26,852 bases of DNA from an uncultured Deinococcales bacterium (GTDB lineage Bacteria > Deinococcota > Deinococci > Deinococcales > JAAFIG01), in the NCBI GenBank assembly GCA_964247135.1, contig CAXTTL010000038.1:1-26852 (forward strand), read 5' to 3'. Of this stretch, positions 1-9,561 are shown piece by piece; the stretch's first letter is position 1, and each line of letters opens with the position of its first letter. The position numbers and the translations under genes were made by a program. The notes under the pieces are model-generated. The model was not told where the DNA came from. It ran no database searches and was given only the letters and a program-made list of their open reading frames with translations.

Positions 1-1530
1 CGGGTGAGCCACCGCCACGTTCATGACGCCCAACATTTCGCCGCCCGCCTGAATTGGGATGGTCGCCCCAGCCCAGTTTTTGGGAATCAAGGCTCGAGAG
101 GCTTCGAGGATGTTGGGGTTGTTGTAGAGGTCTGGGATGCGCTGAGAGGTTTTGGTCTGCATGGCGATGGTCGCCACGCTGTGCCCTGGACGGTCTGAGA
201 CTTTTGGCAGTTCGCTAAGCCAGCCCAGCGAACTCGAGACCATCAGTTTGTTGTTTTCGGGGTCGAACAGCACGATGCTGCCCGCGTCGGTCTCGAGGCT
301 GAGCAGCACTTCACCGAGCAGGCTGTCGGTCAGTTGTTGAATGTCATCGGTTTCGCGCAGTCGCCAAGCGATTTTTTGGATCAGTTCCAGTTCGCGCTGG
401 TACTCTTGGGCTTCGGTCACGTCTTGTTTGATCGCAATAAAGTGCAGGGTTTCGTTCTGTTCATTTTTGACCGGCGTCACGGTCATCTCTTCGATGTATT
501 GACTGGCGTCTTTGCGTTGGTTGGTCAGCCGCCCATGCCAAACCTGACCGTTCAGAATCGTGTCCCAGAGTTCCTGGTAGGCACTTTCGGATTGCTGTTT
601 TGATTTTAAAAAATTCAGATGTTGACCCTTTGTTTCCTCCAGGCTGTAACCCGTCAGGGCATTGAACGCCGAGTTCGCCCATTCGATCAGACCAGCCTTG
701 TCGGCAATCACGATGGCATTCGCGGCAGACTCGAGGGCAACCGCTTGAAGCTTTAACTGCGCCTCTGCCAGGTAGCGCTCGGTGGTGTCGTGAACAATCG
801 AGTAGACCATCGGACGACCATCCACGGTGACCGGACCGCTGTAAATTTCGACGTTGCGAATTTCAGAATTCTTAAGCCGATGCCGAGACTGAAAGAATTC
901 GCGTTGCCCTTGAAAAGCATTTTGGACATCCTCGAGCAGGAGTTCAAATGGCAAGGTGTGAATATCAGACAGGTTAAGCTGGGTAAATTCCTCGAGCGAA
1001 TAACCGTAAAATTCGCAGGCGGCAGGGTTGGCATCGAGAATGTCCATTGTTTGGGGATCAATAAAAAGCATGAGCGCATGGTTAGAGTAAAACATCGAGC
1101 GGTAACGCCATTCGCTTTCCCGCAAGGCAACTTGGGTGCTTTGAAGGGTTTTGCGCTCGTTTTGATGGGTTAAGGCTCGGGTGACGGTGGTCGAAAGTTG
1201 TGCCAGGTGTTGCGGGGTTTTGAGGATGTAATCTTCCATGCCAGATTTCATGGCGAGCACCGCGATCTCTTCGCTGCCGGTCAAGGTAAACATGATGACC
1301 GGACAATCGGGGTACTGCGCTTTAACCCGTTTTAAAACCGCAATGCCGTCGCTAAATCCAAGGTGATAATCGGTGATCACCAGATCAAAACCGCCCCGCA
1401 ACACGGCAGTCTCGAGCGCAGAGACATTGGAGGCTTCAAACATTGAGATATCTTCAAATGACTGACGCAAACTTCGTTTGATCATGTGCAAATCGTCTGG
1501 ATTGTCGTCTACGAGCAGAATATTTGGCAA
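1..1530 (-). CDS. Hybrid signalling protein, REC-PAS-PAS-GAF (partial; 3' end runs off the window)
   Basis: Hand translation from TTG 1530 is open to position 1, so it has no stop and is missing from the ORF track. N-terminal receiver: PNILLVDDNPDD...DLVITDYHLGFSDG...PVIMFT...GMEDYILK. PAS1: ESEWRYRSMF...DANPAACEFYGYS...SIVHDTTER. PAS2: ALESAANAIVIAD...WANSAFNALTGYS...WHGRLTNQRKD...IAIKQDVTE. A GAF-like segment follows (...IPIQAGGEMLGVMNVAVAHP). An alternative in-frame TTG exists at 1572. Confidence 0.88.
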   Translation of the reverse strand, partial: MPNILLVDDNPDDLHMIKRSLRQSFEDISMFEASNVSALETAVLRGGFDLVITDYHLGFSDGIAVLKRVKAQYPDCPVIMFTLTGSEEIAVLAMKSGMEDYILKTPQHLAQLSTTVTRALTHQNERKTLQSTQVALRESEWRYRSMFYSNHALMLFIDPQTMDILDANPAACEFYGYSLEEFTQLNLSDIHTLPFELLLEDVQNAFQGQREFFQSRHRLKNSEIRNVEIYSGPVTVDGRPMVYSIVHDTTERYLAEAQLKLQAVALESAANAIVIADKAGLIEWANSAFNALTGYSLEETKGQHLNFLKSKQQSESAYQELWDTILNGQVWHGRLTNQRKDASQYIEEMTVTPVKNEQNETLHFIAIKQDVTEAQEYQRELELIQKIAWRLRETDDIQQLTDSLLGEVLLSLETDAGSIVLFDPENNKLMVSSSLGWLSELPKVSDRPGHSVATIAMQTKTSQRIPDLYNNPNILEASRALIPKNWAGATIPIQAGGEMLGVMNVAVAHP

Positions 1531-1545
1531 GTTCTCACCGATTAA

Positions 1546-1572
1546 ATTATAAGGTCTTGTTGGCGGTATCAA
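1546..1572 (-). promoter_or_regulatory. Possible sigma70-type promoter for the REC-PAS-GAF gene
   Basis: Minus-strand TTGATA (1572-1567), 15 nt, TATAAT (1551-1546), 15 nt upstream of TTG 1530. The spacer is short. Confidence 0.35.
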
Positions 1573-1575
1573 TGT

Positions 1576-1989
1576 TCAATTGACGTGCGGTAGATGGTTC
1601 CATTTGAGCCAAAAATCGCTCGAGGCTTGGGTGATGGCTTCCATGTGCTCGGGCAGGCTCGGTTTTTCCAGATAACCGTTCGCGCCCAGATCGTAGGCGC
1701 GTTGCAAATCCTTGGGTTCGGTGCTCGAGCTGAAGATCACGACCGGTACGTGTTTTAATTCTGGATGTTGTCGAATCCAGGCTAAAACCTCGAAACCCGA
1801 ACGTTTTGGAAGATTTAAATCGAGCAGCACCAGTCGCGGACGGACTTTATCGGGATTCTGAAAATATTCAATGGCAGCCTCTCCGTCGGTCACGACCTCC
1901 AAAAGATGGGCAAGCTCGAGTTTAGCGAATGCCCTTTTCAAGAGAAAAAGGTCGTCTGGCGAGTCTTCGACAATCAATATTCTGCTCAT
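1576..1989 (-). CDS. Single-domain response regulator, Rcp1/phytochrome-associated-type receiver (137 aa)
   Basis: ILIVEDSPDD, LVLLDLNLPKRSGFEVL, PVVIFSSS, AYDLGANGYLEKP and C-terminal FWL, typical of Rcp1-like receivers. ATG 1989 overlaps the kinase stop (ATGA) and has a GGGAG RBS. Confidence 0.92.
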   Translation of the reverse strand: MSRILIVEDSPDDLFLLKRAFAKLELAHLLEVVTDGEAAIEYFQNPDKVRPRLVLLDLNLPKRSGFEVLAWIRQHPELKHVPVVIFSSSTEPKDLQRAYDLGANGYLEKPSLPEHMEAITQASSDFWLKWNHLPHVN

Positions 1990-4900
1990 GATGTCTCCCT
2001 GGGTTGATTCAGCGACAACCAAAAATGGCTGCCCTTCCCCGGGATCGATGTTACACCAATTTGTCCACCCATGCGTTCCACACCACGTTTAACAAAAGCC
2101 AGACCGATGCCGCTGCCCGGGTATTCGCTGATGCCGTGCAGACGCTCGAAGGGTTGAAAAATGCGTTCCAGGTTCTGGCTATCGATACCGATGCCATTGT
2201 CCTGAATATGAAGTTTGACGGTCTTGGTCTGCGGGTCAGTTTCAGCCCAGATCGTAATTTCTGGTCGAATCCCGACAGATGAGAATTTAAGACTGTTGCC
2301 CAGCAAATTAACGATGATTTGGCGCAATACCGTTTCCCTCGCCAGAACCGTAGAAAAATGCCCTTTTAAGTGAATCGTGGCATTTCGCCGTTCCCTTTCG
2401 TCTTCAAAATCATGAATCAAATCACCCAGCAGCGGCTCGAGCGCGATTGGGGTCAGTCGGATTTCGGCTTTGCTCAGGCGGCTGTACTGAAGCAAATCGG
2501 TGATTAAAATGTCCATGCGTCCCGCCGCACCGACGATACGGTTGACAAAATCTTGTCCCTCTGGTGGCGTGCTGGTTTGGTAATCTTCCAGAAAAGCCCG
2601 TCCAAAACCCTGAATGGCATTCAGTGGACTTCGCAGATCGTGCGAGACGCTCGAGGTGAACGATTCGAGTTCGAGGTTGACTTCGTTGAGGCGCTTGGTG
2701 CGGTCTTGAACGCGCTGCTCGAGTTCGGCGTTCAGTCGCTCGAGGGCTTCCTGGGCGTTTTTGCGGCTTGTCACATCGCGCATCGTTGACTGAATCTCAC
2801 GCAACTCTTTTGTTTGCGGATCATAAATTAATTTGGAGAGTGTCTCGATCCAAACATAATTGCCGTTCTGATGCCGAATCCGAATGGTCGCGCTGAAATG
2901 GGTTTTGTGTTTTTCAACGGCATCTTGACGAATAGCTGCATAAGAAGCTTGGTCGTCGGGATGGGTGACATTAAGACTCAAGACCGTGGCTATTTCATCA
3001 GGACTGTAGCCCAAAACATTGCTTGCCGACGGTGAAACGTAGCGAATTTGTCTGTCAGTGGTCGAAACAATAATGACATCCTGGGCATTTTCGGTAATGG
3101 TACGGTATAAACGTTCACTCTCCTCGAGTTTTTTGAGGGCAGTCACCCTTTCGCTGATATCACGCACCGTTGATTGAATCTCTGTTAATACTCCAGTGTC
3201 ACTGTCTCGAATTAATTTTGAAACAGATTCAACCCAAATATAATGTCCATTTTGATGACGCACTCGAAAACTCGAATTGATATACTCACTGCGATTTTCA
3301 AGTGCCTCTTGACGGATGTTAAGATAACCATTCAGGTCGTCGGGATGGATAAAATCCATCCCAAAAACCTTATCGATTTGAGATTTGTCATAACCAAAAA
3401 CTATTGTTGCCGACGGCGATATAAAATGGATTTTGCTATCGGGGCTGGTGACAATAATGACGTCCTGAGCATTTTCGGTAAGGGTTCTATACAGCCGCTC
3501 ACTTTCCTCGAGTTTTTCTTGTGCAAGGATACGTTCAGTAATATCACGTGAAGACACTTGCAATTCTTGAACCTCGCCGTGTTCATTGCGGTTTATTTTT
3601 AAGATCGATTCGATCCAAATATATTCACCGTCTTTGCGACGCAAACGGCTTTCAGAACGAAACATGTTCAGACCTTTTTCAAGGGCTTCTCGGCGACTTG
3701 CCATGTGCTTTTGAAAGTCGTCGGGATGCAGGTAATTTATGATTGGCGTCAGCATCATTTCTTCTGGCTCGTAACCAGAAAACATTTTGACTGACGGTGA
3801 GACGTACAAAATTGTTGTATCCAAATTGGTAATAAATGTGACATCGTAAGAATTTTCGGTAATGGCGCGGTACAGCCGCTCGCTTACCTCAAGTTTTTCT
3901 TGCGCCACAACTTTTTCACTGATGTCACGTAATGTAATTTGAAGTTCTCTGGCATTTCCAGCTTCATCACGAATGACTTTAACCACAGATTCAGTCCAGA
4001 CATAGCTGCCATCGTGACGACGGGTTCTGTTCTCTGAACGAAAAACGCTATCACCTTTTTCAATCGATTTACGACGATTGATTTGGTATCGCTCGAGATC
4101 ATCGGGATGAATGTAACTAAAGGCTTGAGTCTGTTCAAGTTCTTGTGGCTCATAACCAAGTATGTTTTTCGCCGCCGGCGAAACATATTGAATCATAGAA
4201 TCCAGACCCACAATCAAGATCACATCGTGAGAATTTTCGCTGATCGTGCGGTACAGACGCTCACTGCTACGAATCGCCTCCTGAATTTTGTGGCGCTCGG
4301 TAACATCGGCATAAAAAATCAGTATCCCGTCCGGGTTTGGGTAAATCCGATTCTCGAGCCATCGCGCCGAGGTCGATGAAGGGTCATCGATCACCGAACT
4401 GATGTTTTGATCCATTGCCCTTTGGCAAGCCCGCCCAAAATCGGTATCGAGCGCGTTTGGAAACTCTTGCCAAATGTTGTGACCAATGATGCTCGAGGCG
4501 TCGCGTTCCAAAAGTTTTGCACCGTTGGTATTGATAAACGCAAAACGCCAATTGCGATCAATCACAATCAAACCCTCGGTCATGGATTCGATCATGCTTT
4601 TAAAGCGTTCGCTGCCACGGCTGCCGCTGAGGTTGCGGGTCACCACCAAATACGTGACCTGCCCAACTTGCAAACTGATCTTTTCAAAGATCACCTCACC
4701 CCAATACCGGTAACCATCCGAACGGGTCAACCAACCCAAATGGGACGCCCGACCCGTTAACTGGGCTTGTCTGAACAAATCTTCGGGATTCCAAGTTTCT
4801 TGGCTGACAAAACACTGCGCCACAGGTTTGTTTAAAACCTGATGACTCGTGAATCCATACATTCGAGCCGCATCGGCATCCCAAGAACGCACCAAACCGT

Positions 4901-5213
4901 CCGCATCCAAACCAAAGATCGCGTACTCGACACTTCCACCGACCAATCTTTGAAATTCGTTCAGATGCTCGAGTTCACGAGATGCCAGTTGATCTTGGGT
5001 ACGGCGCGAACGAAGCACAAAAAAGTAGATCAAGCCAGAACTGATGAAGCCAAAAACAATGTCCAGAATAATAGCCAAGTTCTCGAGTCCACTTTGACCA
5101 AAAAGTACCAACAAAAGCTTATCCGCGAACACAGACCAGAACATCGCAAATAAACCATATGAAAGCGCGATACGCAATTCTGGTCGTAAGGGGTTCAATG
5201 GATTTCTAGACAT
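1986..5213 (-). CDS. Membrane-anchored multi-PAS sensor histidine kinase (2 TM, about 6 PAS/PAC, HisKA, HATPase_c)
   Basis: Two N-terminal hydrophobic helices and repeated SERLYR..ENxxDV...HPDD...RDI(T/S)E PAS/PAC units. H-box [11 protein letters not shown]-box [10 protein letters not shown]1 DNGIGI, F-box [10 protein letters not shown]2 GSGIGLA. Confidence 0.95.
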
Positions 5214-5428
5214 AAAAATGAATTGAAAACACCTTTCATAAAGTGCGGCGCGTCAAAACTGAACTGGCTTTCAAAACAAAGTACTCAAACGTTATTGTCA
5301 TAATCAGCATAGTGTAGTGAGACTTAAAACTTTATTACCGCTGATTTCACCATCACTTCTGCCAAAACCTAAACGATCAATATCAACCCCAAATGAAAAA
5401 ATCGTGTCCCAATGGGGATTTTCGGTGT

Positions 5429-5546
5429 GCTATGACATTCTTGACCACTACCACCCTGCCTCGGTTTCTGAGCAAACATCAAACCCAAAACAACCAGAGG
5501 TCACAAAAAGTGTTCTCAAAACAACTTGAGATTATTCTTTAACCAT
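5429..5546 (-). pseudogene. Probable decayed third copy of the secreted-peptide gene
   Basis: Collinear blocks shared with one or both intact copies: ATGGT (5546), CTCAAGTT (5530-5523), CTTTTTGTGACC versus CTTTTCGCAACC, TTGCTCA (5475-5469) and GGTGGTAGTGGT (5455-5444). TAA at codon 5, a later frameshift and a degraded RBS. Confidence 0.5.
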
Positions 5547-5569
5547 TCCCCAAGCAGATTGTCAAAACG

Positions 5570-5603
5570 AGGATAATGTTGTGGCACTGAACAGACAATG
5601 AAC
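5570..5603 (-). promoter_or_regulatory. Promoter with 11-bp-period direct repeats (SARP-type architecture)
   Basis: Minus strand reads GTTCATTG-tct-GTTCAGTG-N9-TATCCT. It aligns without gaps to 6091-6124. Confidence 0.55.
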
Positions 5604-5607
5604 AACG

Positions 5608-5635
5608 GTCTGGACTCACTCGAGCGAATCCAGAC
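5608..5635. other. Imperfect inverted repeat downstream of the peptide genes (possible terminator or stabilising hairpin)
   Basis: GTCTGGACTCA-CTCGAG-CGAATCCAGAC, with 9/11 arm pairing around a central CTCGAG. A second inverted repeat CAAACTCG...CGAGTTTG lies at 5661-5690. No strong U-tract. Confidence 0.35.
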
Positions 5636-5707
5636 GCGCAGTTAAAATACCTTGATTGGTCAAACTCGAGTTGATTGAAGAACGAGTTTGTTGTTGCTTG
5701 GTCGGGC

Positions 5708-5827
5708 TTATGGATGTGGAGTAACGCTTCCACCACCACTACCACCACCGATTGGATCGGCATGAGCAATTGAAAGGGTTGCGAAAAGAGCGACCAGAAC
5801 CACAAAAACTTGAGCGAATTTTCTCAT
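5708..5827 (-). CDS. Small secreted peptide precursor A, 39 aa: MRKFAQVFVVLVALFATLSIAHA-DPIGGGSGGGSVTPHP
   Basis: Hand translation; not in the ORF track. AAGGAGG RBS 6 nt before ATG 5827. Classical Sec signal peptide (basic N region, hydrophobic core, A-H-A cleavage site). Paralog of 5943-6062. Confidence 0.88.
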   Translation of the reverse strand: MRKFAQVFVVLVALFATLSIAHADPIGGGSGGGSVTPHP

Positions 5828-5942
5828 GACTATCCTCCTTGGTGCTTAACAAACAGAGAACACATTTTGGCGTTGGATAGTCACTAAGCAATCAACCATC
5901 GAAACATTAGCCTGCCAGAAATGAAGCTAGACGTATCGCTGC

Positions 5943-6062
5943 TTATGGACGTGCGCTGCCGCCACCACTACCAAGACCAGTCGAATATGGATCAGCATGG
6001 GCAATCGAAAGGGTTGCGAAAAGAGCGACCAGAACCAAAAAAACTTGAGCGAATTTTTTCAT
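5943..6062 (-). CDS. Small secreted peptide precursor B, 39 aa: MKKFAQVFLVLVALFATLSIAHA-DPYSTGLGSGGGSARP
   Basis: C-terminal part of track ORF 5943..6269. The true start ATG 6062 is supported by an AAGGAGG RBS at the same 6-nt spacing as copy A. Sec signal peptide with A-H-A site. Confidence 0.88.
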   Translation of the reverse strand: MKKFAQVFLVLVALFATLSIAHADPYSTGLGSGGGSARP

Positions 6063-6090
6063 TACCATCCTCCTTGGTGCTTGCCCGTGA

Positions 6091-6136
6091 AGGATAGATT
6101 TGTGATACTGAAAAGCGGATGAGGTGTACACTGAAC
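6091..6136. promoter_or_regulatory. Divergent control region between the peptide genes and the regulator
   Basis: Minus strand: GTTCAGTG (6136-6129) ... CCTCATCC-gct-TTTCAGTA-N9-TATCCT (6096-6091). Plus strand: candidate -10 TACACT at 6127-6132 overlaps the GTTCAGTG box. Confidence 0.5.
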
Positions 6137-6157
6137 AACTCGGCGGAGGTGAAAAAC

Positions 6158-8062
6158 GTGCATCGTATTTTGGAACATGTATTGGTGGGCAATGAAGCTG
6201 GTGCATGGGCACTGTACCAGCACATTGACCTACCTTCTGCCCTCGAGGATCGTTGGGCTGGTTGGGCATTGATCAATTTAGAGCGGCATCTCGAGGCAAA
6301 AGATTTATTGCTTCGATCTGTGCAACGTGGTTGTAAAGAGGCTCGAATAGAGTTGGCTACTGTTGAACGGTTGCTCGGAGATTTCAAGGCGGCACGTTTG
6401 ACATTGGACGGACTAGAGCACTTCACTTTTCCAGAACCGTTTGATGAAGCCTTGTATTGGCGTGAAATGGGTGTGATTTATTTATCATTAAGTCAGTCAG
6501 AATTTGCACTGACAGCATTACATACTGCATGGGATATCGTTCAGCGCGAACCTAATCTTCAATACCTCTATGCGGCAGTGGCACAAAGTCTTGGTGTTTT
6601 TTTTCTGTCGCAACGTCAATACCGTCAAGCGGCACATTACTTTTCCGTAGCACTCGAAGGGATTTTGGTGCTAAACCGAGAATTGCGAATCCGTTCGCAG
6701 CGAGTAGTGTGTCATATCTACCTTGGCGCATTTTTGGAGGCAAAGAACGATCTTGATTTTCTTGAACAACACATTGCGAATCATCCTACGTTGCGAGGGC
6801 AAATGGTCTATTACCAAGGTCTGTTGTTCCGCGCCACCGAAACCTGGGCAGAATCAGAACAACATTTTCTAAACGCCGCCAAACTCGCTCGAGCCGCAGA
6901 AGAACCCGAACTTGCGTTTTATGCCGAAATCAACGCCGCCACGGTCATGGTCATGCAGAATAAACTCGAGCAGGCAAGGATTTTGCTGGTTCGAGCCAAA
7001 AGCATCGCCCACAGCCCCAGAGATCACGCCACCTGGAGTTGGCGCAAAGGCTATCATTTGCTGCACTCCAAACCCTTGGAAGCCATGCCATTGCTCGAAT
7101 CTGCGGCGGCAGCCTTTGAAGGCATGGATTTGCCTCGAGAAACCCTGGCGTGTTGGTTAAACCATGCCGAGGCTGCCAGACGTGCTGGGTTGCTCGAGCA
7201 GGCGACGCAATCCTTGCAAACGGCGGTGGATGTGACCAGCACCGCCGATGATGCGTTTGCGGCGATAGAGCTGGCGTTGTTGCCCGATTTAAAAGCTTGG
7301 TTGAGCCAGCTCGAGCCAGTTTGGCAAAACATTTTGCTGCCCAAAAACCCTGACGCTAGCGTTCAGGTGCTCGAATTGCTGACGCTTGGCAAGTCGGAAT
7401 TGCGGGTCAACGGCAGGGCAGTCAGTTTGCGCATGGCGCGTACTGTCGAAATTCTGGCGTTTTTACTGAAAAAACCGTATCGAACCAAAGCCGAAATTCT
7501 GGTGGGTTTGTTTCCAGACAGCGATCCCGAACAAGCCATCAATTATTTTCACAAAGCCAAGCAACTCTTGACCGAAGCCATCCCCAGCCTAACGATTGCC
7601 TTTGATGTAAGGCGCAAAACCTACAGCGTGAAGGCTCAATCAGATTTGCAAACCGATTTTATACACTTTCAGTCTTTGCTCAGTGGACGTCGGGATAATA
7701 ATGTTCTAGAGGTACTGAATGCCTACACGGGGGCATTTTTGCCCCATGCGAACAGCCAGTGGGCAATTGAGGAGCGCGAAGCTTTGGCTTGGAACGTGGT
7801 TAAAATTGGCTTGGAAACACTTCAAAGATGGTACGAGGCGGGCGAGGATCAAAAGTGCTTGTCCTTGGCTGTTCGGCTGCTCGACATTGAACCGTACAAT
7901 CCAGCCCTTTCCGAGTACCTGGTCACGGTCACGTTGAGGCTCGAGGGTGAGGTGGCGGCAAAACGCGAGTTGCAACGGGCGAACCAAAAATTTTTGCTCG
8001 AGGTGGGTGAAGTGCCGCTCGAGTTGCGTCAATTGGGCAAGAGGTTGCTTCATCTGAACTGA
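6158..8062 (+). CDS. TPR-repeat transcriptional regulator with C-terminal winged-helix and BTAD (SARP-like) module, 634 aa
   Basis: Likely start GTG 6158 with GGAGGT 7 nt upstream (the track starts at 6119). About 400 aa of TPR-like helical repeats (e.g. AVAQSLGVFFLSQRQYRQAAHYFSVAL, YYQGLLFRATETWAESEQHFLNAA). Then LELLTLGKSELRVNG...EILAFLL...LFPD (SARP/OmpR-type wHTH) and YTGAFLP...W...R...LLDIEPYNP (BTAD-like). Confidence 0.85.
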   Translation: MHRILEHVLVGNEAGAWALYQHIDLPSALEDRWAGWALINLERHLEAKDLLLRSVQRGCKEARIELATVERLLGDFKAARLTLDGLEHFTFPEPFDEALYWREMGVIYLSLSQSEFALTALHTAWDIVQREPNLQYLYAAVAQSLGVFFLSQRQYRQAAHYFSVALEGILVLNRELRIRSQRVVCHIYLGAFLEAKNDLDFLEQHIANHPTLRGQMVYYQGLLFRATETWAESEQHFLNAAKLARAAEEPELAFYAEINAATVMVMQNKLEQARILLVRAKSIAHSPRDHATWSWRKGYHLLHSKPLEAMPLLESAAAAFEGMDLPRETLACWLNHAEAARRAGLLEQATQSLQTAVDVTSTADDAFAAIELALLPDLKAWLSQLEPVWQNILLPKNPDASVQVLELLTLGKSELRVNGRAVSLRMARTVEILAFLLKKPYRTKAEILVGLFPDSDPEQAINYFHKAKQLLTEAIPSLTIAFDVRRKTYSVKAQSDLQTDFIHFQSLLSGRRDNNVLEVLNAYTGAFLPHANSQWAIEEREALAWNVVKIGLETLQRWYEAGEDQKCLSLAVRLLDIEPYNPALSEYLVTVTLRLEGEVAAKRELQRANQKFLLEVGEVPLELRQLGKRLLHLN

Positions 8063-8153: not shown

Positions 8154-8783
8154 TCAATTGATCCGTTGAGATTGGTGTTCGGTTTGGGGGTTTTGACTGA
8201 GCACCGACCAATCGCGGGTTTGGGTTCCGAGCGCCCGCTCGAGGAACGCCTCGACAATTTGTGGGTCAAATTGGGTTCCGCTGTGACATTGCAATTCCTC
8301 GAGGGTCGAATGGATGCCCCAGGCTCGAGAGTAAGAACGTTGCGAGAGCAGGGTGTCGTAAACGTCGCAGATGGTCAAAATTCTGGCTTCGATTGGGATT
8401 GCCTGCCCTGCCAGGTTGGAGGGGTAGCCAGTGCCGTCAAAGCGTTCGTGGTGGTGCAAAATTGCTTTGAGCGCGTTTTCACGGATGCCTGGGATGGCTT
8501 TTGCCAGGGTGAAGCTCCAGTAAGAATGGGTTTTGACGATTTCCCATTCGTTGAAATCGAGTTTTCCTGGTTTGGTCAGGATTTTTTCGGGGATCACCAG
8601 TTTACCGATGTCATGAAGGTAGGCGGCTTGAGACAGGGCTTCCAGGGCATCGTCATTTAAGCCGAGCATTGTACCGATGGATTCGACCAGGGTTACCAAA
8701 CGCCGTGTATGTCCGACGGGTTCAATGCCCCGTTCCTCGAGTTCTAAACCGAAAGCACAAATCGTGTAAATATCGGGCAGCAT
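8154..8783 (-). CDS. Stand-alone HD-GYP domain protein (putative cyclic-di-GMP phosphodiesterase)
   Basis: GHTRR, LHDIGK, ILTKPGKL, HHERFDGTGYP, ARILTICDVYD and GTQFDP motifs; AGGAG RBS. Confidence 0.93.
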   Translation of the reverse strand: MLPDIYTICAFGLELEERGIEPVGHTRRLVTLVESIGTMLGLNDDALEALSQAAYLHDIGKLVIPEKILTKPGKLDFNEWEIVKTHSYWSFTLAKAIPGIRENALKAILHHHERFDGTGYPSNLAGQAIPIEARILTICDVYDTLLSQRSYSRAWGIHSTLEELQCHSGTQFDPQIVEAFLERALGTQTRDWSVLSQNPQTEHQSQRIN

Positions 8784-8949
8784 AAAATTCTCCTATTAAA
8801 ACGGTGGTTGAGGATGATCGGGTTGGTGTTTGGATGTTGCGCACTCGAGGTTGCGGGTCTTTATTCTCGAGTAAAAATTCAATAGAAACCCTGACTGGTA
8901 CGTGTACGGTTGTCTGACTGGCACTGATTTTGAAAACGAACTTCGGGTT

Positions 8950-9561
8950 TTATCGTCCCTTGGGTTGAATAAAATTGAGTTTGGCTTCGATGCGTTCACG
9001 CAGTTGATCAAAGGGTATCGGTTTGGGCAACAACAGAACGCTTTCGGGCAAGCCTCCTTTGGCTTTGATGTCTTCGGGGGTCATGCCGCTGACGGTGACA
9101 ATATCGGTGTTCTCGAGGTCGGGCATACTGCGCAGGGTGCGAATCAGGGCAAAACCGTCCATGCCTGGAATGCTGAGGTCAAGAATCAAGAAATCTGGTT
9201 TTAAGTTTCCAATCTCCATTAACGCCCGAAAACCGTCGTTGGCGATGCTGATCTCGAGCGGCAATTTCCAACTGCTGATGACCATTTGATAGAGCTTGAC
9301 CAAATCGGGGTCGTCCTCGGCAATAAAGACCCTGAAGCTGCGCCCCTGGACTTCGGTGCGGCGTTGGCTCAAGAGGCGGTCCACGGATGCCCGCACCACG
9401 CGGCGGTGTCCTCCGACGGTGCGGTAGGCTTGCAGTGCGCCCTGTTCGACCCATTGTTGTACGGTGCGCAACGAAACGCCCAGCAAATCGGCGGCTTCCC
9501 TGGTGGTGATGACCGCGTCGCGTTCCAATGATCCGACTGTTTGATCTGCTGAATGATTCAT
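8950..9561 (-). CDS. Excisionase-family (HTH_17/MerR-like) DNA-binding domain fused to a receiver domain
   Basis: N-terminal TTREAADLLGVSLRTVQQWVEQGALQAYRTVGGHRRV. C-terminal receiver with IAEDD, LILDLSIPGMDG, VTVSG and PKP. Confidence 0.9.
   Translation of the reverse strand: MNHSADQTVGSLERDAVITTREAADLLGVSLRTVQQWVEQGALQAYRTVGGHRRVVRASVDRLLSQRRTEVQGRSFRVFIAEDDPDLVKLYQMVISSWKLPLEISIANDGFRALMEIGNLKPDFLILDLSIPGMDGFALIRTLRSMPDLENTDIVTVSGMTPEDIKAKGGLPESVLLLPKPIPFDQLRERIEAKLNFIQPKGR

Follow-up and report, generated by a model that had tools for sequence, protein, structure and literature searches.

A propeptide gene pair beside a TPR-SARP regulator in Deinococcales: a putative RRNPP-like peptide signalling cassette

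Two tandem genes for 39-residue peptides with predicted signal sequences lie divergently beside a regulator gene in a 26,852-nt stretch of DNA from an uncultured Deinococcales bacterium (contig CAXTTL010000038.1, assembly GCA_964247135.1; this whole stretch is hereafter the window). The regulator combines tetratricopeptide repeats (TPR) with a C-terminal module of the SARP (Streptomyces antibiotic regulatory protein) type, and small open reading frames (ORFs) of the same kind were found beside its homologues in four families of the order. The pair probably consists of propeptide genes that are tandem paralogues and belong to a peptide signalling cassette of RRNPP-like type, one that lies outside the Bacillota and has a novel receptor architecture. 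This reading, drawn from sequence comparison and structural modelling, gains strong context because a Rap/NprR-like receptor adjoins the genes and because the cassette recurs across the order. The window's own genome (G000; assembly of 5.09 Mb, 386 contigs, 84% complete) was compared with two genomes of the same genus, G001 and G005. The elements of the cassette are as follows.

5708-5827, minus strand: propeptide gene A, distal to the regulator, 39 codons, MRKFAQVFVVLVALFATLSIAHADPIGGGSGGGSVTPHP
5832-5847, minus strand: 16-nt leader of gene A, identical to the gene B leader, AAGCACCAAGGAGGAT
5943-6062, minus strand: propeptide gene B, regulator-proximal, 39 codons, MKKFAQVFLVLVALFATLSIAHADPYSTGLGSGGGSARP
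6067-6082, minus strand: 16-nt leader of gene B with a Shine-Dalgarno motif (GGAGG), AAGCACCAAGGAGGAT
6119..8062, plus strand: receptor-regulator gene, divergent from the peptide genes, probable start GTG 6158

The propeptide genes, their partner and their recurrence

The original prediction, made from the window alone, had described two copies with a nearly invariant first half, an identical upstream leader and a diversified mature part, and a recount bore this description out. Codons 1-25 of A and B differ at 5 of 75 nt, with three synonymous changes (TCA/TCG, GCT/GCC, and GCC/GCT) and two non-synonymous ones (R/K and V/L), and the 16-nt leaders are the same. The resemblance ends about 20 nt upstream of the ATG and immediately past the stop codon, and the farther flanks are unrelated. 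For gene B, an in-frame ATG at 6068 was set aside in favour of the start at 6062, which has GGAGG at a distance of 7-8 nt on its upstream side. In both copies, residues 1-23 resemble a Sec signal peptide, with a basic N-terminal end, a hydrophobic stretch of 15 residues and a final A-H-A (21-23); they differ between A and B at two residues. The remaining 16 residues (24-39) open with D-P, have G-x-GSGGGS in their interior, and close with a Pro codon before the TAA stop, and the two tails can be aligned only by means of indels. A search of the whole assembly, and of relatives as the original prediction had proposed, recovered A and B as the only copies in G000 and orthologues in G001 and G005, with both peptide types present in G005, so that the pattern goes beyond a chance resemblance. 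A Protein Atlas query with peptide A was uninformative (top score 0.80), and an Rfam search of positions 4800-6400, with E up to 1, returned 0 matches.

That both copies are real genes under selection had first been argued from the synonymous bias between A and B, which, at three changes versus two, involves too few differences to carry the claim. The claim itself stands on the orthologues. By the Nei-Gojobori 1986 method, the non-synonymous and synonymous rates (dN/dS) for A-type genes of the three genomes were 0.072/0.444 (0.16), 0.112/1.008 (0.11), and 0.111/0.576 (0.19). Taken by region, the B-type tail shows four synonymous and one non-synonymous codon differences between G000 and G005, with 15 of 16 residues kept, and the signal-peptide half of the two G000 copies has a dS of 0.20. 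As judged from these comparisons, A and B are real genes, because the A-type orthologues evolve at dN/dS of 0.11-0.19, and both peptide types are conserved coding sequence. Among 48 ORFs of the peptide family, the median length is 41 aa, the last 14 residues contain 24% Gly and 13% Pro, and a GGAG-type motif precedes 38.

For the survey of the cassette, a divergent ORF encoding a signal peptide and a short tail was sought within about 500 nt of each regulator homologue. Such an ORF accompanies all four testable regulator copies of G000 (contigs C38, C35, C311, and C294); a fifth copy ends at a contig edge and was left out of this count. It was also found beside 30 of 34 homologues from the same family (three of which had first been located via the peptide), 15 of 20 from two other families, which include a large genus of 3-5-Mb genomes taken to be Deinococcus, and 9 of 10 from a fourth Deinococcales family (loci L137-L146), whose regulator homologues are about 570 aa long and in which only 6-7 residues follow the signal-peptide-like part. 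Pooled over the four families, 54 of the 64 fetched homologues carry the ORF. As a control, 988 long ORFs of G000 were scanned; any divergent, signal-peptide-like small ORF was present at 136, while the requirement of a Gly-rich tail left five, three of them being the regulator copies. By our own count, 24 of the 34 same-family cassettes pass this Gly-rich filter. The conserved unit comprises two genes, because the downstream genes differ between cassettes and no third gene is conserved beside the regulator-peptide pair. Tandem duplicates of the peptide gene occur in three cassettes (the window and two more), four propeptides (L046, L050, L065, and L145) contain internal tail repeats of two or three copies of a 6-10-residue unit, and many same-family and other-family cassettes have tails of 8-16 residues. 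The fourth-family propeptide, with the shortest tail class seen, is itself conserved and mostly ends in S-Q-R. Within G000, the C35 (19060-19179) and C311 (2045-2167) propeptides share the same 14-residue tail, their signal peptides are closely similar and their regulators are close sisters; the cause is a recent duplication or, alternatively, the joint binning of two strains.

The regulator probably starts at GTG 6158, which is preceded by GGAGG at a distance of 8 nt; in keeping with this start, the matches to most homologues set in at or close to residue 14, and there are gene calls of 634 aa. The protein has 634-647 aa. A Pfam search detected only TPR_12 (E 1.5e-9), with BTAD falling below threshold (13.5 versus 22.1 bits, E 0.093). 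An AlphaFold model built with 90 homologues (pLDDT, the predicted local distance difference test, 94.8) begins straight at the TPR helices (residues 3-393), which are followed by a winged helix (405-499) and a BTAD-like helical domain (500-632), so that the predicted DNA-binding SARP module is C-terminal, at residues 405-632 of 634. Profile searches against the PDB matched NprR (E 4e-9), AfsR (E 1.4e-8), and the EmbR winged helix (E 1.9e-6). Foldseek, ranked by E-value, returned generic TPR proteins together with the AfsR SARP (TM 0.68). The top structural matches of the TPR domain were Rap and NprR, and AfsR and EmbR were also matched in structure. The modelled fold is described as Rap/NprR-like, a grade that stops short of proven homology.

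The regulator family is small, a set of 1.84 billion representatives yielding 125 clusters at E<=1e-30; some of its members have been named by JGI, and the partner peptides are unnamed. Paralogues of about 650 aa occur several per genome within the window's family, where a match is present in each of the 19 genomes. Across the order, the regulator is matched at E<=1e-15 in 70 of 201 genomes, and at the same threshold one small-genome family has none (0 of 23 genomes). When metagenome contigs were scanned with the regulator, and again with its close relatives as an aligned set, no relative was returned either time.

The tail class was found to follow the regulator phylogeny. In a quick IQ-TREE tree of 51 rows, with SH-aLRT support, the tail classes were read against the cassette lists, and each supported regulator clade has one tail class. 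The window's clade (nine rows, support 100) has tails that start with D-P, are Gly-rich, and end in R-P, H-P, or K-P, with three ending in Arg. The tails of the other clades end in LPGG, in a GPIGG-like sequence, in P-P-x-x-C-x-x-C or in G-G-K, or are made up of internal repeats. Tails ending in C-x-x-C preceded by P-P occur at L052, L055, L056, L057, and L060, which form one regulator clade, and also at L036 and L040; this ending is suggestive of a disulfide, or else of a metal site, in the predicted secreted peptide.

Promoter repeats and a proposed pathway

Further features of the window, in the promoter regions and among the neighbouring genes, are listed below.

6137-6128 and 6114-6105, minus strand: a 10-nt direct repeat in two copies, TGTTCAGTGT and TTTTCAGTAT, at a spacing of 23 nt, located in the 95 nt that separate gene B from the regulator
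5608-5635, minus strand: terminator-like hairpin with a 12-bp stem, 3' of gene A, conserved in G005 and G001
5585-5605, minus strand: TTGTTCATTG and CTGTTCAGTG, directly repeated at a spacing of 11 nt, immediately past the hairpin and ahead of the histidine kinase operon
1986-5213, minus strand: multi-PAS histidine kinase (Pfam)
1576-2022, minus strand: receiver protein (Pfam)
1-1572, minus strand, running off the window: receiver-PAS-GAF protein (Pfam)

The repeats at 6105-6137 constitute a candidate binding site for the SARP domain in the peptide promoter. In G000, G001, and G005, a TCAG motif is located -72/-73 and -49/-50 relative to the ATG; it occupies fixed, phased positions in all nine cassettes of the window's clade, one of which has it at -94, -83, -72, -61, and -50 (-72 and -49 in the window), and in the six remaining cassettes of this clade it recurs in steps of 11, 12, or 22 nt. 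The repeats at 5585-5605 are a candidate second operator; the exact TGTTCA-N5-TGTTCA arrangement has this single occurrence in the window, and the block is invariant in G000, G005, and G001.

Direct repeats of 7-mers matching at 6/7 positions or more were counted between -130 and -15 in 51 peptide promoters and compared with shuffles and with 1,897 real upstream regions of G000, scaled per 51; the related cassettes in this set are not independent of one another. The counts showed sharp maxima at the following spacings.

Spacing 11 nt: observed 75; shuffles 7.6 +/- 4.2; genomic 19.4
Spacing 12 nt: observed 47; shuffles 8.1 +/- 4.4; genomic 21.5
Spacing 21, 22, and 23 nt: observed 38, 36, and 36; shuffles ~7; genomic 19.2, 14.4, and 12.2

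A repeat at spacing 11 or 12 is present in 24 of the 51 promoters, compared with 8.5 in the shuffled sets (14 at most) and 13.1 in the genomic regions, and Tandem Repeats Finder reported 11-nt arrays at 2 of 3 loci tried. PMC5930380 describes the classical SARP site as an 11-bp unit lying on a single helix face. A sigma-70 consensus scan of 5150-6250 found 0 promoter-like sites, other promoter types lying outside the scan. Genes A and B may be one transcript, since no terminator-like hairpin was found between them.

The genes at 1..5213 form a possible regulated operon, with membership judged from the sequence. In G005, too, these three come after the peptide genes, and they are not conserved at other cassettes. 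Downstream of the regulator, 8154-9561 encodes an HD-GYP-type HD_5 protein and a MerR-like helix-turn-helix fused to a receiver domain. Together with the PAS kinase and receiver-PAS-GAF(-HD) genes on the opposite side, they place the cassette in a dense signalling neighbourhood that is possibly related to cyclic di-GMP. The G000 assembly has 26 matches to SBP_bac_5, the Opp/Dpp-type binding protein family, a set judged to be large for a 5-Mb genome; it makes peptide re-import possible and is unspecific.

A pathway can be proposed from these features, each of its steps being inferred from sequence; what the analysis itself establishes is the reality of the genes, their conserved pairing with the regulator, the receptor fold and the phased repeats. 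The 39-residue precursor would be exported via Sec, which is likely for these propeptides, and cut after A-H-A at residue 23, to release a Gly-rich 16-mer with an X-Pro N-terminus and a C-terminal Pro. Ends of both kinds resist exopeptidases. The peptide, whole or trimmed, would then be re-imported, with Opp/Dpp-type binding proteins as a possible route, and would bind the concave face, or groove, of the Rap/NprR-like TPR domain of the cytoplasmic regulator. The C-terminal SARP domain would act on the helically phased TCAG/TGTTCA repeats, both at the peptide promoter, as feedback, and at the PAS kinase operon. Recombination between the signal-peptide-coding repeats would keep those halves alike within each genome, while the mature halves would stay as two types.

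Mosaic history of the gene pair

The two halves of the genes were found to have different histories. The signal-peptide-coding parts are identical at 64/69 positions within G000 and at 63/69 within G005, and at 53-60/69 between genomes, whichever copies are compared; the corresponding dS is 0.20 within G000 versus 0.46-1.77 between genomes. The mature halves, by a hand count from the alignment, group by type across genomes (A-A 47/51 nt and B-B 44/51 nt). Because the signal-peptide halves group by genome, their likeness within a genome mainly indicates concerted evolution, which accounts for it better than purifying selection alone, and we conclude from the same alignments that the mature tails are maintained as two types.

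Relative to the regulator, A-type and B-type genes lie in opposite order in G000 (5708-6062) and in G005 (L011 1268-1617), where the A-type gene is proximal to the regulator and the B-type gene distal, yet the intergenic spacer is homologous. Unequal crossing-over between the signal-peptide repeats was considered as the cause of the swap and rejected, as it gives duplications or single hybrids and never a swap. A mosaic relative from a protein collection joins the signal peptide of the proximal copy to the A tail, and this would be the expected leftover of pop-out recombination between the signal-peptide repeats. Two further relatives combine an N-terminal part unlike the window's B tail with a B-like C-terminal end, and in one of them the N-terminal part matches the start of the G001 A-type. 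For the pair, the original prediction had suggested two signal specificities, an agonist/antagonist pair or an intermediate in pherotype switching, and redundancy of A and B is a further possibility. The mosaic variants in close relatives and the swapped order in G005 point towards diversification. The shared core set against differing flanks, the presence of both types in two species, and the mosaics favour two functionally distinct peptides.

Competing explanations and relation to known systems

Several observations weigh against a signalling function for the pair. The signal-peptide call was made with a crude hydrophobicity rule plus the A-x-A motif, and uptake of a 16-mer is assumed. Generic eukaryotic TPR scaffolds (APPBP2 25.3 and LGN 25.0) score only about 2 Z units under the Rap matches, and it is because of this margin that the fold is graded as no more than Rap/NprR-like. 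No peptide ORF was detected beside 4/34, 5/20, and 1/10 homologues; when nine of these were rechecked under looser criteria, nothing convincing emerged, and the three fetched cassettes lacking a detectable peptide all fall within one regulator clade. Only 24/51 promoters have a repeat at spacing 11 or 12, and the window's own pair consists of two imperfect 10-mers. The match of tail class to regulator clade fits ligand-receptor co-evolution and falls short of proof, because linked genes diverge together. The receptor, at 634-647 aa, exceeds the 250-500 aa of known RRNPP receptors, the excess being the C-terminal SARP module, and in this it differs from all RRNPP receptors described. G001 has a single gene, A-type, at the same place. 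The B-type copy of G005 (L011 1268-1386, minus strand) has one T fewer in a T run of the signal-peptide part, which breaks the frame, and its mature part is one residue off the window's B; it may be a pseudogene of recent origin, or else a variant of the assembly or the population. These two genomes, as sequenced, show that one type can be dispensed with, and one lineage may have lost B.

The principal competing explanation, which we regard as distinctly less probable than signalling, is a regulator-target pair without signalling, in which the small proteins are secreted effectors (for example metal-binding, surface-active, or antimicrobial Gly-rich) switched on by the adjacent SARP regulator, whose TPR domain senses something else. 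At most, the phased promoter repeats speak for control of the peptide gene by the regulator, and not for feedback by the peptide; some tails contain His or C-x-x-C motifs, and adjacency and co-divergence follow from linkage alone. However, tails of 6-7 residues in one family, and of 8-16 in many cassettes, are ill-suited to a structural or antimicrobial role, the best structural matches of the TPR domain are peptide-pheromone receptors, and several distinct cassettes coexist per genome. The internal short-unit repeats, moreover, resemble the multi-pheromone propeptides described in PMC11343458.

The association of the pair with a multi-PAS histidine kinase raises the question of whether the peptides are instead extracellular signals sensed at the membrane by that kinase, through a two-component route like those of the autoinducing peptide (AIP) and competence-stimulating peptide (CSP) type. 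The kinase, receiver, and receiver-PAS-GAF genes do follow the peptide genes in both G000 and G005, and the kinase N-terminus looks hydrophobic by eye. Other cassettes, however, have unrelated downstream genes in place of the kinase, its visible sensor domains are PAS folds, and no sizeable segment was seen by eye in the translation between the N-terminal hydrophobic stretches, so that this route appears improbable. It is slightly more doubtful still that the ORFs encode precursors like those of ribosomally synthesized and post-translationally modified peptides (RiPPs), with a Gly/Ser/Cys-rich core tailored by enzymes encoded elsewhere: the cores are indeed short and rich in Gly, Ser, Thr, and Cys, and one class ends in C-x-x-C, but no modifying enzyme is conserved beside the cassettes, and the leader resembles a Sec signal peptide more than it does the recognition leader of a RiPP. 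That one or both ORFs are chance frames or decaying, functionless duplicates, as the 1-nt deletion in the T run of the G005 B copy and the single copy in G001 might hint, is very improbable given dN/dS of 0.11-0.19, a conserved ribosome-binding site, and like ORFs beside 54/64 fetched homologues and 4/4 own copies in four families.

For the favoured signalling interpretation, the closest comparison is with the RRNPP systems. RRNPP receptors typically have an N-terminal XRE-type helix-turn-helix or a Rap 3-helix bundle, whereas the DNA-binding module of the present regulator is of another class and is located at the opposite end. Rap itself has the N-terminal 3-helix bundle, lacks a DNA-binding domain, and acts on response regulators, with phr downstream in the same operon. 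Compared with Rap-Phr systems of Bacillus, phages, and plasmids, the cassette has a C-terminal SARP output, divergent genes, a Gly-rich tail, and a Deinococcales host; the internal tail repeats of four propeptides of the family recall the multi-pheromone propeptides of phage Rap-Phr systems. The receptors of NprR-NprX, PlcR-PapR, and AimR-AimP carry an N-terminal XRE-type helix-turn-helix and use palindromic boxes, whereas here an OmpR-type winged helix and BTAD are C-terminal, and the promoters contain direct repeats. PMC10075063 gives the RRNPP signature as a propeptide of 10-100 aa exported via Sec, a TPR receptor of 250-500 aa, and directly neighbouring genes; the small propeptide (39 aa in both copies), the TPR receptor with predicted peptide binding, and the adjacency (divergent genes with a 95-nt gap) agree with this description. 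Pheromone duplication within propeptides is likewise recorded for RRNPPA systems in PMC11343458. By analogy, the cassette appears RRNPP-like in its working, yet it is not filed here as an RRNPP member.

In terms of its output module, the regulator is a SARP of unusual domain order. It shares with SARPs the OmpR-type winged helix followed by a BTAD helical domain, and the direct repeats in 11-bp phase in its target promoters as candidate sites. The SARP module is usually N-terminal, and in AfsR an NB-ARC ATPase separates it from the TPR part; compared with AfsR and EmbR, the present protein has TPR first and SARP last, with no ATPase. To our knowledge, no secreted peptide partner has been described for SARPs. 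Domain III of MalT is also among the closest known systems. MalT is a STAND ATPase that senses maltotriose and has no peptide partner, unlike the regulator described here, which is paired with a peptide gene.

PMC10075063 and PMC11343458 regard re-imported, genetically encoded peptide signals, together with their TPR receptors, as characteristic of the Bacillota and of the phages and plasmids of these bacteria. No description of such a system in Deinococcus, or elsewhere outside the Bacillota, was found in the literature searched, in which subscription journals were not covered. Cassettes also occur in a sister family presumed to include cultured Deinococcus, so that the idea may be directly testable. 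There is, in our estimation, about an even chance that Deinococcales, including cultured Deinococcus, run RRNPP-type cassettes as several orthogonal pairs per genome, and that selection keeps the two peptide types of the window apart while recombination shuffles, duplicates, and deletes them.

If the signalling interpretation is true, the cassette would represent the first RRNPP-type quorum sensing outside the Bacillota, with a receptor of Rap/NprR fold fused to a SARP output, and the known range of peptide quorum sensing would widen to a distant phylum. The TPR sensor would be shown to be re-wirable to a SARP output, and the order would offer sets of probably orthogonal peptide-regulator-operator parts. 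The homogenised signal peptide with its two conserved tail types constitutes a compact case of concerted evolution limited to half of a 120-nt gene, and recombination through the shared signal peptide would provide these bacteria with a built-in route to pherotype change.
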